Source: a virus
Taxonomy: Duplodnaviria > Heunggongvirae > Uroviricota > Caudoviricetes
Virus record (IMG/VR): IMGVR_UViG_2526164690_000035
Coordinates: 1-18,588 of that record
Length of the DNA stretch: 18,588 bases
Reading direction: 5' to 3' (one strand)
Within the stretch, counting starts at the first letter, position 1. Each line of letters starts with the position of its first letter. A program made the translations under genes and the position numbers. Under the pieces are notes generated by a model. It saw only the letters and a list, made by a program, of their open reading frames with translations. It was not told the DNA's origin and made no database searches. Below, piece after piece: positions 6,580 through 9,862 of this stretch.

Positions 6580-9567
6580 ATGAGCTTAAGCGATCAGGTG
6601 GTAATGGCCACCAGCATAGAAACGCTGATCGAGCTGCTAAAGAACCTGCCCGATTATGGGCGGGTTTCGTATGTGGTGACAGCGAAGGGAGACGAGGTAA
6701 AAACAGCGTTTGATATCGTCGATGCCTCAGCTCTTTTGGTATCCAATACTCTGGATGGGAAAATTAATCCTGACTATCCCCAGGAACTTCAGCCGCGCGA
6801 CCGGACCCGCGCATCCAGCCTTCTTCAGGTTAACCAGATATCCAAAGATTTGCGGCCTGCTCAGCTTACCGATTCCGGTTTATCCAGCCATGGTGCGCCG
6901 ATAATTGGTGAGGACAATGCCGTTGAGTCAGGTAATGGACGGACCATGGGGATCATCAAAGCCTATCAGGACGGCAATGCGGATCGGTATCGTGAGTACC
7001 TGATTGAACATGCGACCGAATTCGGCATACGACCTGAAAAGGTTGAATCAATGACGGCTCCGGTACTGGTGCGCCGCCGGTTAACCAAGGTTGACCGCGT
7101 TCAGTTTGCCAAGGACTCAAATATTTCTGATCTTCAGGAAATGGCAGCCAGTGAAAAGGCTTTTGTTGATGCCGACAGCATAACACCGGCGATGATGGCG
7201 CTTTTTAACCCGTCAGAAAGCGGAGATCTGCTTAGCCGCAGTAATGACGCGTTTATTCGCGGATTTATGACGCAAGTTGGTGCCACACAGGCGGCTGGCC
7301 TTGTAACGGAAGATGGGCGACCAACGCGGCAACTTGTTGACCGTATACAAAACGCGATCTTTGCCAAGGCATATAAGGATGCGCGCCTGGTAAGGATGGT
7401 TGCAGAAGAACCTGATCCGGATATGCGTAATGTTCTGACGGCGCTTAATGCGGCAGCCAATGATTTTGTCCAGATGCAGGCTTTATCAGGAGAAGCGCAC
7501 AAGCAGGCTGTGACAACTATTGTTGATGGCATTGAGACAGCGGATAGCCTCGATAAAAAGGCGCTGGCGGCATTGAAAGATGCGGTAGACCTGGTAAGGC
7601 AATCGAAGGAGTCAGGCCAGCATATTACCGATGTTATTGCTCAGGGGGATATGTTCAGCGAAACGGCCCCGGAAGTGAAAGCACTCGCGTTGTTCATCGT
7701 CGCGAATAACCGTAGCGCGAAGCGTATGGCCACCGCCTTTAAGTTGATGGCTCAACGTATCAATGATGAGTTACAGCACCAGGGCCAGGCGCTGGGGGAT
7801 ATGTTTGGCGGCGGCGATGTGTCGTTACAGGATATCCTTCGCCAGGTGTCTCAGGAACTGGAAAACGAAGGCATGCAAGGGATATCCGGCGGTCTTTTCG
7901 AGTCCGTTTCCGGCGGTAGTTACAACGGTGTTGCTCCGTATACCAATTTGCTATTACATCGGGCATCCGGCATCAAAGACATTATTCATCTGATCAGGCT
8001 GCTTTCCCGCACAGATCCCCAGGATGAACAGCTTGTACAAGTGTTTGCGCATTTTGTTCGAATGCCTGTTGCCGACGTGAAAAAATGGTGCCGATTATTC
8101 GGTATCAGCAATTCGTTACTTCGCGGCTTGTTAAATCACGCATCCTCCCTTGGGCGCGATGGCTTTGACGAGATAGCGCAGGCGATAAAAAACGGAGATA
8201 TGCCACCAGCTATTGACTGGTTTTCCATTCGCCCAACCTGGGTGAAAGCATTCCTTAGCGCGGCGCATTCGGCATCACCATTGGCAGAAATGGTTCAGAG
8301 GTTGTCGCTCATATTCACAGACCATACCGCGTTGGGTGATCTGACTCTGGACGAGATGAAAGAAGCCTCCATTCAGTGGGCCGATCAACAAAATGAGGTT
8401 AACTCTGACTTCTTGCCAGCATTCAGGAAGGCCGTTAGTAAAGCGGATGATGCCCGTGGAATTCTGAAGGCATTTAAGGCATTGCAAAGTCGGGTTAATA
8501 AACATGTCGGTGATATCGATGGGGTAACGGCGGAAGGCAGGGATATCCTTAAAGAGCACGGCATAACGCCAGAGTTTATTGATGAGATCAGGACGGATAT
8601 GCAGCGTGAGGTCGTATCGTCCCTGCAAATCGTAGCCAGAGCGTTGGCGGATGCTAATCCGAAGAGTGCGGCCATTGTTAACCGGGTTATTGGTGATATT
8701 GAAGCATCGGAGGGCATGGGGGCGCTGAAACTCTTCCTTTCGCGAGCGTTTAATCCTAACGGCAATATTCTCCCTGGCATTATTGGTGAGGCTAAAAAGT
8801 ATGTCAGTGAAGAAGAACTTGAGCAGCTTGACCAACTACTTAAGCGATTCTCATATAACCCGCAGACACGCTGGCAAATGAATCAGCGAAGTATGGGTTC
8901 GGTCCACGAGAAAGTGTTATCTGCCATGAACAGTGCGATCGCAAACTCATCCGTATCTGAAGAAAAAGCTCTTGAGTGGGCCGACTCTTTTATCACAGAA
9001 GAAGTGGAAGAAGTCCGCGCTGGACAGAATGGTGGGATAGACCTGCGCAAGGAACTTGCTGATATTTATCGCCTGACCGGCGGGAAAATATCGACCTTAT
9101 CAAAGGTAGTTCACCACCAGGGAAGGGCATATGCAAATCTAAATGGTGTTGTTGCTGTCAATTTGAACGATAAAAATGCAAGTGCACTGTGGCACGAGCT
9201 GGGTCATCATCTTGAGTACAGTAACCCTGGTTTGTTAGAGAAAGCCCGGTCATTCCTGAAGGCCAATGTTGAAGGGGATAAGCCATCATTCGTCAATATC
9301 GGTGGGCGTGGCAAGCCTGAATGGTGCTTCAGATCTCGATTGAGTAATATTTATATGGCGAAGGTATACCCGCCAGCCTCAGTAAGTAATTCCGGGAAAA
9401 TTCGGCAGAAATCACCGACTATTTCCAAAACGTCAGCAACGGAAGTATTCTCTATGGCTCTTCAGTTGTATCATGACAAAGAGGCCGCTGCCGCATCACT
9501 GATGAATGGTGACGGATTGCTGGAACTGTTATTAGGTGTGGCAAAGGAGCTAAATAATGCAGATTAA
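6580..9567 (+). CDS. ddrB: Large Dar-operon protein (DdrB-like) with a C-terminal HExxH motif
   Basis: 995-aa ORF preceded by AGGG, same orientation as darA/ddrA. Contains WHELGHHLEY (HExxH at about residues 872-876, DNA 9193-9207). Named by position and size; family not verified. Confidence 0.45.
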   Translation: MSLSDQVVMATSIETLIELLKNLPDYGRVSYVVTAKGDEVKTAFDIVDASALLVSNTLDGKINPDYPQELQPRDRTRASSLLQVNQISKDLRPAQLTDSGLSSHGAPIIGEDNAVESGNGRTMGIIKAYQDGNADRYREYLIEHATEFGIRPEKVESMTAPVLVRRRLTKVDRVQFAKDSNISDLQEMAASEKAFVDADSITPAMMALFNPSESGDLLSRSNDAFIRGFMTQVGATQAAGLVTEDGRPTRQLVDRIQNAIFAKAYKDARLVRMVAEEPDPDMRNVLTALNAAANDFVQMQALSGEAHKQAVTTIVDGIETADSLDKKALAALKDAVDLVRQSKESGQHITDVIAQGDMFSETAPEVKALALFIVANNRSAKRMATAFKLMAQRINDELQHQGQALGDMFGGGDVSLQDILRQVSQELENEGMQGISGGLFESVSGGSYNGVAPYTNLLLHRASGIKDIIHLIRLLSRTDPQDEQLVQVFAHFVRMPVADVKKWCRLFGISNSLLRGLLNHASSLGRDGFDEIAQAIKNGDMPPAIDWFSIRPTWVKAFLSAAHSASPLAEMVQRLSLIFTDHTALGDLTLDEMKEASIQWADQQNEVNSDFLPAFRKAVSKADDARGILKAFKALQSRVNKHVGDIDGVTAEGRDILKEHGITPEFIDEIRTDMQREVVSSLQIVARALADANPKSAAIVNRVIGDIEASEGMGALKLFLSRAFNPNGNILPGIIGEAKKYVSEEELEQLDQLLKRFSYNPQTRWQMNQRSMGSVHEKVLSAMNSAIANSSVSEEKALEWADSFITEEVEEVRAGQNGGIDLRKELADIYRLTGGKISTLSKVVHHQGRAYANLNGVVAVNLNDKNASALWHELGHHLEYSNPGLLEKARSFLKANVEGDKPSFVNIGGRGKPEWCFRSRLSNIYMAKVYPPASVSNSGKIRQKSPTISKTSATEVFSMALQLYHDKEAAAASLMNGDGLLELLLGVAKELNNAD

Positions 9568-9862
9568 AATCGCAGCGCCATTAGGCGGAGATGCCATTAT
9601 CGAATTTGATGATAATGAAGAAGTTTCCGGGCGTTTAAGCATTATCTCCGGTGACATTACCGAGGACATGATCGCTGAAGCCATAGCTGGGGCAAATCCC
9701 AATAGCTATATGGGATTCGTTAACACCCTTGATGCTCCCGCAAGTGATGTTCTCCGAACGCTGCATCTTTACGCTGGCTGGTTTGTCGATTGGCCAGCAG
9801 TAGAGGGTGGCGATGAGGACGACGATGATTTTGGGGATCATGTAGACCAGATCGTATATTAA
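9557..9862 (+). CDS. Small highly acidic protein at the distal end of the operon
   Basis: 101-aa ORF overlapping the upstream stop by 11 nt. About 22 Asp/Glu versus 3 Lys/Arg, with the C-terminal run EGGDEDDDDFGDHVDQIVY. Confidence 0.5.
   Translation: MQIKIAAPLGGDAIIEFDDNEEVSGRLSIISGDITEDMIAEAIAGANPNSYMGFVNTLDAPASDVLRTLHLYAGWFVDWPAVEGGDEDDDDFGDHVDQIVY

Follow-up and report, generated by a model that had tools for sequence, protein, structure and literature searches.

The gene hxr/odaA closes the darA operon of a P7-like phage-plasmid of the P1 family, which is contained in the window studied here (the whole stretch of DNA that was analysed, 18,588 nucleotides (nt), positions 1 to 18,588 of IMG/VR record IMGVR_UViG_2526164690_000035). 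Its product, Hxr, is a small and very acidic protein encoded directly behind DdrB, a protein of the Dar antirestriction system. We tentatively favour the reading that Hxr is a dedicated small partner, either a chaperone or an inhibitor, of the C-terminal metallopeptidase module of DdrB; both the binding and the direction of its effect we infer from the way in which the two genes occur and diverge together.

Coupling of hxr to the metallopeptidase module of DdrB

The open reading frame (ORF) runs from ATG to TAA over 101 codons on the plus strand (9557-9862) and its product is MQIKIAAPLGGDAIIEFDDNEEVSGRLSIISGDITEDMIAEAIAGANPNSYMGFVNTLDAPASDVLRTLHLYAGWFVDWPAVEGGDEDDDDFGDHVDQIVY, 101 amino acids (aa) long. 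The gene is already catalogued, as hxr or odaA, and is mislabelled as a repressor. The window protein is 100% identical to OdaA of phage P7 (YP_009914498) and ~98% identical to Hxr of phage P1 (YP_006490), which are the same gene in the same place, the last ORF (ORFVIII) of the darA operon. In a PHROGs search Hxr belonged to PHROG 2292, a family without name or function, and in the P1 record, as in many others, it is labelled 'possible repressor; homolog of Xre'. An earlier note on this DNA had counted 22 Asp/Glu against 3 Lys/Arg residues, and our recount agreed exactly (15 Asp and 7 Glu; 1 Lys and 2 Arg; 2 His in addition). With a computed net charge of ~-19, an isoelectric point (pI) of 4.05 and a mass of 10.9 kDa, Hxr is the most acidic product among the 26 ATG-initiated ORFs of at least 80 aa in the window. 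A DEDDDD run had been described as terminal; the run is present (residues 86-91), but ten further residues, FGDHVDQIVY, come after it. The overlap of the ORF with the end of ddrB was confirmed and amounts to 11 nt, the hxr ATG lying at 9557-9559 and the ddrB TAA at 9565-9567. The features on which the following argument depends are:

6580-9567, plus strand: ddrB (P7 'prt'), 995 aa; Pfam ddrB-ParB at E=1e-39, alignments and the published domain description (PMC5512222)
9193-9207, plus strand: HELGH (HExxH) zinc-binding motif of DdrB, residues 872-876, within WHELGHHLE; located in the sequence
9544-9549, plus strand: strong Shine-Dalgarno sequence of hxr, AAGGAG, within the ddrB 3' end, 7 nt upstream of the start codon; read from the sequence
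9557-9802, plus strand: folded core of hxr/odaA, residues 1-82, predicted beta-beta-beta-alpha-alpha-beta; AlphaFold2 model and 20-sequence alignment
9803-9862, plus strand: acidic tail of hxr/odaA, residues 83-101 (EGGDEDDDDFGDHVDQIVY), plus the stop codon; model confidence (pLDDT) <50 for residues 84-101, and composition

DdrB falls into three parts: the N-terminal half, which includes a ParB-like domain (residues 36-167), a variable middle and, at the C-terminus, a zincin metallopeptidase domain (~767-995). This architecture was described by Iyer et al. (PMC5512222). The pattern W-H-E-x-G-H...E is invariant across the P1-like, Serratia, Rosenbergiella and Vibrio-phage homologues of the peptidase. 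DdrB is reportedly trimmed to ~76 kDa ahead of packaging, a cleavage for which its own peptidase domain has been put forward (PMC5512222).

Loci were gathered with DdrB and peptidase-domain queries; the Hxr alignment has no stretch conserved enough for a locus search. The initial viral scan gave near-identical P1-like loci only and was repeated with a distant sequence as lead. The first sampling comprised annotated phages, looked-up contigs and one genome per species (11 loci added), and the counts are of non-redundant loci. In this sampling a long DdrB with the metallopeptidase module was followed by an overlapping Hxr-type ORF at 13 of 13 loci (96-107 aa, 19-25 Asp/Glu against 3-7 Lys/Arg, 8-14 nt overlap with the ddrB stop), including those of Serratia and Rosenbergiella metrosideri, in which the ORF has diverged nearly or completely past recognition by a hidden Markov model (HMM). 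Among the annotated phages, Hxr occurs exactly where DdrB is full length, i.e. in the P1-like phages and in Cronobacter phage JK004. Where DdrB is short (~450 aa), no Hxr-type ORF was found at any of the six loci (D6, Enterobacter, two from Pantoea, Erwinia and Buttiauxella). In D6 itself DdrB stops at 454 aa and Hxr is missing, while hdf, darA and ddrA are retained. In the D6-like phage-plasmids of Enterobacter, Pantoea, Erwinia and Buttiauxella, DdrB ends at the module boundary.

The association extends to distant DdrB proteins in IMG/VR that have both the ParB-like and the peptidase domain (loci L104-107, L111/112 and L179), each of which is accompanied by an Hxr-family ORF at -1 to -8 nt. 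The Hxr-family HMM recognised these ORFs at E-values from 1e-10 to 3e-3, which one iteration lowered to between 1e-22 and 1e-29. At every homologous locus hxr and ddrB still overlap by 1-14 nt, including those at which Hxr is only ~20% identical. An exhaustive HMMER search (1.84 billion representatives) and two profile searches (5.8 billion clusters) never returned the Hxr family away from full-length DdrB. Since the D6-type phages keep the ParB-like domain without Hxr, Hxr is not required for that half of DdrB, and on the same ground a role as neutraliser of the ParB-like nuclease domain was rejected.

Divergence follows the same division of the protein. Across the 13 loci, the pairwise identities of Hxr and of the metallopeptidase domain were correlated (Spearman rho 0.53, Mantel p=2e-4), whereas those of Hxr and of the N-terminal ParB half were not (rho 0.03, p=0.38). 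The two parts of DdrB do not follow each other either (rho 0.01), DdrB being a two-module mosaic with a ParB-like N half (residues ~1-450) and a C half composed of the middle and the HExxH peptidase. The comparison of the window with a Klebsiella locus (L006) illustrates this: the N half is 91% identical, the C-module 45% and Hxr 44%. With Hxr identity tracking the peptidase domain but not the N half, the DdrB C-module and hxr are inherited as one unit. The gene thus has the traits of a cassette, lying directly downstream of an enzymatic C-terminal domain, translationally coupled to it, and co-occurring and co-diverging with it.

In the mechanism that we propose, translational coupling would supply Hxr in a fixed ratio with DdrB. 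Inside the producing cell Hxr would attach to the C-module and serve as its chaperone or safety-catch, keeping the peptidase or the whole C-module inactive or assembly-competent until DdrB has been processed to its ~76-kDa form and has docked on the DarA/Hdf/DdrA layer of the procapsid. Thereafter Hxr would stay behind together with the C-fragment that was cut off. Hxr would on this model be an accessory assembly factor of Dar antirestriction and not an inhibitor of restriction enzymes. The model accounts for the coupling and the cassette behaviour of hxr, for its late timing and for its absence from virions, since a partner of the cleaved-off C-module would not be packaged either.

Small ORFs also stand behind other peptidases of this type. 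Phage proteins that carry the same peptidase clade at the C-terminus behind different N-termini, namely those of Vibrio phage VAP7 (1207 aa) and K469 (837 aa), a MuF-peptidase fusion (649 aa) and proteins of ~390 aa, are each followed by an ORF of 76-100 aa at -8 to +2 nt. The VAP7 (L021:130-4028) and K469 (L022:1036-3809) carriers have no Pfam domain and end in a DdrB-type HExxH peptidase, and an ORF of 87-90 aa comes directly after, at +2 or -4 nt; that of VAP7 is annotated 'tetraspanin-15', surely a mis-annotation. The VAP7 product, gp181, had the top TM-score to the Hxr model in BFVD, although at 0.39/0.42 the score is not significant. In hhalign comparisons of the Vibrio-phage and MuF-type downstream ORFs with Hxr, gp181 aligned end to end at P=0.012 and another at 0.1, and with the Hxr HMM all of these ORFs had E>0.08, so that homology is not demonstrable. 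The pattern is a lead: the ORFs would be positional analogues, and their placement may be due to chance. It is rather doubtful, but conceivable, that Hxr founds a new class of small coupled safety-catch or chaperone partners of zincin domains in virion-delivered 'polyvalent' proteins, which would time self-cleavage and of which the ORFs behind the VAP7, K469, MuF-fusion and 390-aa carriers would be remote relatives.

Several points weigh against the partner reading. As hxr adjoins the 3' half of ddrB, co-occurrence and co-divergence are partly expected without any functional tie: one deletion can remove hxr together with the C-module, linkage gives the two a common recombination history, and a single event may underlie all six short-DdrB loci. 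The Klebsiella locus L006 and Cronobacter JK004 (L009) have peptidase domains that are 96% identical and Hxr proteins that are only 65% identical, with synonymous divergence (dS) of 1.5 against 0.23. Their hxr genes form a divergent island (L006:7578-7874 against L009:5984-6274) of 60-69% nucleotide identity between flanks of 89-99% and 84-88%, which shows that hxr alleles can be exchanged without the peptidase. Hxr showed no charge complementarity with the peptidase domain, which is roughly neutral (net -8 to +7); as this domain is not basic, the conserved acidity of Hxr goes unexplained by a partner model. The ORFs behind the peptidases of proteins other than DdrB lack the acidity of Hxr, and no homology to it can be demonstrated for them. 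The contact between Hxr and DdrB, and likewise the role of the acidic tail, we infer.

It could accordingly be argued that Hxr has a separate function late in infection and, at the margin of a variable region, merely neighbours the 3' end of ddrB. Adjacency would suffice for joint loss and a common recombination history, hxr can be swapped independently of the peptidase, and synteny breaks immediately after hxr. Linkage alone, however, leaves unexplained why the start-stop overlap and the internal ribosome-binding site are kept where the protein is barely recognisable, and why the family is found nowhere but at full-length DdrB in the databases searched. We consider this explanation quite unlikely.

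The Hxr family and its predicted fold

The Hxr family comprises a few dozen clusters in total, all of 95-107 aa and without names, from contigs of 70-100 kb in Escherichia, Klebsiella, Citrobacter, Cronobacter, Serratia and Rosenbergiella. Invariant residues are G53, the VLR motif (V65, L66, R67) and W75-x3-W79-P80, and in the alignment the acidic positions E16, D19, D33, D78 and E83 are conserved in place. The core is acidic in all 20 full-length homologues (net -4 to -10), down to ~30% identity, and the tails, of 18-23 residues with 7-13 Asp/Glu, contain no Lys or Arg in any of the 20; the tail of the window protein has 9 Asp/Glu and likewise no basic residue. As core and tail acidity are kept in all 20 homologues, the acidity is not due to chance. 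The ratio of nonsynonymous to synonymous divergence (dN/dS) was 0.13-0.18 in five pairwise comparisons, which indicates purifying selection and thus a real, constrained protein. Positive selection was rejected as the source of the L006/L009 divergence, in which dS is saturated and dN/dS is 0.18, pointing to allele replacement.

The tail varies in sequence and length, and its end is usually hydrophobic-Val/Ile-Asn/Tyr/Phe. Among near-identical P1-like alleles (IMG/VR loci L023-L102) the poly-Asp run ranges from 4 to 9 residues, and a few alleles have entirely different tail ends, such as ...EEVFSDETVNQLLY and ...QGDAANLLI. This polymorphism suggests repeat slippage combined with selection on composition and not on sequence. 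One family member, P0015 (184 aa), is a natural tandem duplication of the Hxr domain in which the long acidic tail is kept in the second copy only, and it may hint that a dimer is the working unit of Hxr. The repeat proteins P0021, P0024 and P0026 (HMMER E 4e-7 to 7e-4) were rejected as relatives, because their scores sum short, beta-hairpin-like segment matches over tandem repeats; they have no relation to Hxr in context or length.

The AlphaFold2 model, built on the 20-sequence alignment, is of moderate confidence (mean pLDDT 76, core blocks 68-90). It contains strands at residues 2-6, 12-16 and 28-32, helices at 36-43 and 62-71 and a further strand at 76-78; residues 84-101 are disordered, with pLDDT <50. 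A fold search with the model gave no match among solved or viral predicted structures. Hxr had no family match in Pfam and NCBIfam even at E=10, the 20 homologues scanned singly gave no Pfam match at E<=1, and phmmer against the PDB chains returned nothing at E<=10.

These results bear directly on the label that the gene carries in the databases. Support for an Xre-homologous repressor is confined to the note in the P1 record, which gives 28% identity over ~58 residues to a phage Xre repressor. None of the 20 family members matched the helix-turn-helix (HTH) families HTH_3, HTH_19 or HTH_31 at E<=10, the predicted fold consists of four beta strands and two helices, no HTH protein was among the fold matches of the model, and a pI of 4.05 with a net charge of -19 is incompatible with operator binding. 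A repressor function is effectively refuted by these findings. The earlier note had already judged that Hxr does not resemble an HTH protein, and this was borne out by the Pfam results and by the model, which is mixed alpha/beta and not an all-helical bundle.

Virion content and the question of DNA mimicry

T7 Ocr and ArdA are, like Hxr, small and extremely acidic proteins with few basic residues, and they come from mobile elements that face type I restriction. Ocr and ArdA are made immediately on DNA entry. It had been suggested for the window protein that it might be a DNA mimic of the same type, i.e. a free-standing protein that blocks type I restriction enzymes. The position of hxr within an antirestriction operon agrees with this, as does the composition, 22 acidic and 3 basic residues in 101 aa being comparable to the 34 and 6 of Ocr, which is a dimer of 116-aa monomers (PMC3439906); the tandem duplication in P0015 would further hint at a dimeric unit, as in Ocr.

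We nevertheless regard a free-standing mimic as improbable, as the suggestion found no positive support. The search against the Ocr (PF08684) and ArdA (PF07275) families that had been recommended was run, and neither gave a Pfam, PDB-sequence or fold match to Hxr; nor was there similarity to any solved DNA mimic. Where Ocr-type proteins form an elongated, all-helical dimer, the Hxr model has a mixed alpha/beta core with a disordered tail. Expression of hxr is late, from the LPdar promoter, and the protein was not detected in virions. The gene is lost along with the DdrB C-module in the D6-like phages. Dar protection, moreover, is cis-only and confined to co-packaged DNA, in that a coinfecting Dar- phage is still restricted (review PMC12707154), which argues against an injected titrating mimic, as this should work in trans and rescue the coinfecting phage. 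The late operon, the absence from virions and the cis-only action of Dar together argue against a diffusible mimic like Ocr, and the tie to the DdrB metallopeptidase module points to a partner role instead of a free-standing inhibitor.

The virion data deserve some caution. The published list of P1 virion proteins, obtained with liquid chromatography coupled to tandem mass spectrometry, does not contain Hxr, although the 13-kDa DdrA and the 17-kDa Ulx were detected. The tryptic peptides of Hxr are of 4, 22, 41 and 34 aa, one of them of convenient size, and for this reason the absence of Hxr from the list is weak evidence.

Hxr could instead be a packaged Dar component that enters the head with DdrB and is ejected with the DNA, its acidic surface and tail contributing locally to cis protection by standing in for DNA or its charge towards Dar or host DNA-binding proteins. 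It is a member of the darA operon, strictly coupled to the packaged DdrB, and a rule of two peptides would miss it in the virion. Acidity is its best-conserved property, with E16, D19, D33 and D78 in place and the tails free of basic residues, the divergent-island alleles of hxr resemble counter-defence genes, and a local role would fit cis-acting Dar. Reviews (PMC12707154) and the electron cryo-microscopy (cryo-EM) paper nonetheless count six Dar virion proteins without Hxr among them, Hxr went undetected alongside DdrA and Ulx, and Hdf, DarA, DdrA and the DdrB N half are present in D6-type phages that lack Hxr, so that we judge packaging unlikely. Given the family-wide acidity, some charge or DNA mimicry by Hxr that is local and not Ocr-like is a live option; that Hxr is a new DNA-mimic fold which rides into the cell on DdrB is less likely than that it founds a new class of zincin-domain partners.

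A scaffold-like factor, taken into the procapsid alongside the Dar proteins and then expelled or degraded at DNA packaging, would also be late, acidic and absent from mature virions, and the Dar proteins are tied to head morphogenesis. The Hxr family is, however, tied to the DdrB C-module and not to capsid genes. Knock-down of hxr by CRISPR interference gave no plating phenotype on a non-restricting host, a result which speaks against a scaffold and is uninformative on restriction and on the partner reading. We consider a scaffold-like role highly improbable, and among the roles discussed a partner of the DdrB C-module remains the one that we favour.

The darA operon and related systems

The window is 99.2% identical to phage P7 across 1.6 kb. 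The other features of the operon, together with an insertion and the putative end of the transcript, are:

1544-1562, plus strand: LPdar, the darA-operon late promoter (-22 box and -10), the same 19 nt as the LPdar annotated in P1 (NC_005856)
1591-2360, plus strand: lydA (1591-1920) and lydB (1917-2360), the opening genes of the operon; Pfam LydB at E=8e-104, P1/P7 annotation
2338-4870, plus strand: hdf (2338-2949) and darA (2951-4870); Pfam DarA_N in both and DarA_C in darA, P7/P1 annotation
4867-5232, plus strand: ddrA (P7 odaC); ORF, P1/P7 annotation
5229-6563, minus strand: InsQ/TnpB insertion of 1335 bp between ddrA and ddrB, with tnpB at 5272-6480; absent from P7 and P1
9924-9961, plus strand: stem-loop with a 15-bp stem at the P1-annotated position of the darA-operon terminator; fold of 9860-9990

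The gene order lydA-lydB-hdf-darA-ddrA-ddrB-hxr, between LPdar and the terminator, is kept in all related loci. The assignment of the ORF to the end of an antirestriction (Dar) operon, made earlier from the sequence, is upheld by the LydB, DarA_N, DarA_C and ddrB-ParB Pfam domains upstream. The P1 annotation has no further promoter between LPdar and hxr, and the 1998 'darA operon' record (AJ000741) places the terminator 30-103 nt past the stop of ORFVIII, which is hxr. With LPdar upstream, no annotated promoter in between and a terminator behind it, hxr is the last cistron of the late operon. Folding of 9860-9990 gave a free energy (dG) of -34.5 kcal/mol (z = -4.3); a simple terminator scan made no call after hxr, the stem at 9924-9961 having no trailing T-run. 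A second stem-loop lies at 9872-9911, in the gap of ~740 nt (9863-10601) between hxr and the porin gene nmpC, which holds no ORF of at least 50 aa apart from one on the minus strand (10442-10615) on the nmpC side. Synteny among the P1-like elements breaks directly after hxr: nmpC follows in P7, isaB and IS1 in P1, and ssb, a toxin-antitoxin pair or an Arc-like gene at other loci.

The InsQ/TnpB element is foreign to the ancestral darA operon. It is of the IS200/IS605 type, its tnpB (Pfam OrfB_IS605, Cas12f1-like_TNB and HTH_OrfB_IS605) belonging to a family of RNA-guided nucleases, and its insertion point is exactly the ddrA stop codon; several P1-like plasmids of E. coli of 96-107 kb carry the identical insertion. 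As it lies antisense within the late operon, it could be polar on ddrB-hxr. Two further features were noticed in the window. A full-length Rfam match to RNA-OUT, the antisense RNA of IS10/Tn10 (98.8 bits, 78-147, plus strand), places an IS10 end at its left edge, and a putative gene, an ORF of 132 aa on the minus strand inside ddrB (7134-7532), corresponds to 'iddB' of P1.

Pairs in which a small gene directly follows, and is co-transcribed with, a metallopeptidase domain are known from protealysin-emfourin and from cassettes of C-terminal toxin domains and immunity genes. In the former a zinc metalloprotease and an inhibitor from the same operon form a 1:1 complex at the active site (PMC9505478). 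A further trait shared with hxr is that the small gene and the C-terminal domain form one exchangeable cassette. Hxr differs from emfourin in that it has no homology to it or to any solved inhibitor, and the emfourin (M4in) family gave no Pfam, PDB-sequence or fold match to Hxr. The enzyme differs as well, as the DdrB peptidase is regarded as an autoprocessing domain within a virion protein and not as a secreted toxin.

Class I chaperones of type III secretion and VirE1 of Agrobacterium are acidic proteins of ~7-15 kDa that are translationally coupled to a large client which has to stay fit for translocation, and VirE1 occupies the DNA-binding surface of VirE2. By analogy, the role proposed for Hxr would resemble that of these small acidic export chaperones. 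A parallel exists within the Dar system itself, where Ulx of P1 is, like Hxr, a small protein encoded beside a giant partner, and gets DarB into the head. Ulx is, however, detected in virions and Hxr is not, and the gene for Ulx lies upstream of darB, whereas hxr lies downstream of ddrB.

The Dar system of P1, a workhorse phage, is the textbook case of virion-delivered, cis-acting antirestriction, and the last gene of its darA operon has been left out of all accounts of it. The gene has instead carried an unsupported 'repressor' label since 2004, and 'putative repressor protein Hxr' has spread over many records of P1-like phage-plasmids, including carriers of mcr-1 and of extended-spectrum beta-lactamases; we suggest 'DdrB-associated acidic protein' as a replacement. 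Should the link to DdrB be mere adjacency, hxr would be an ordinary lineage-specific phage ORF. If Hxr does control how DdrB matures or is packaged, Dar would have Hxr as its seventh component, and the published phenotypes of ddrB deletions may include polar or coupling effects on hxr. In that case the self-processing that has been proposed for the metallopeptidase domains of phage and plasmid polyvalent proteins would also gain a regulator that can be tested.

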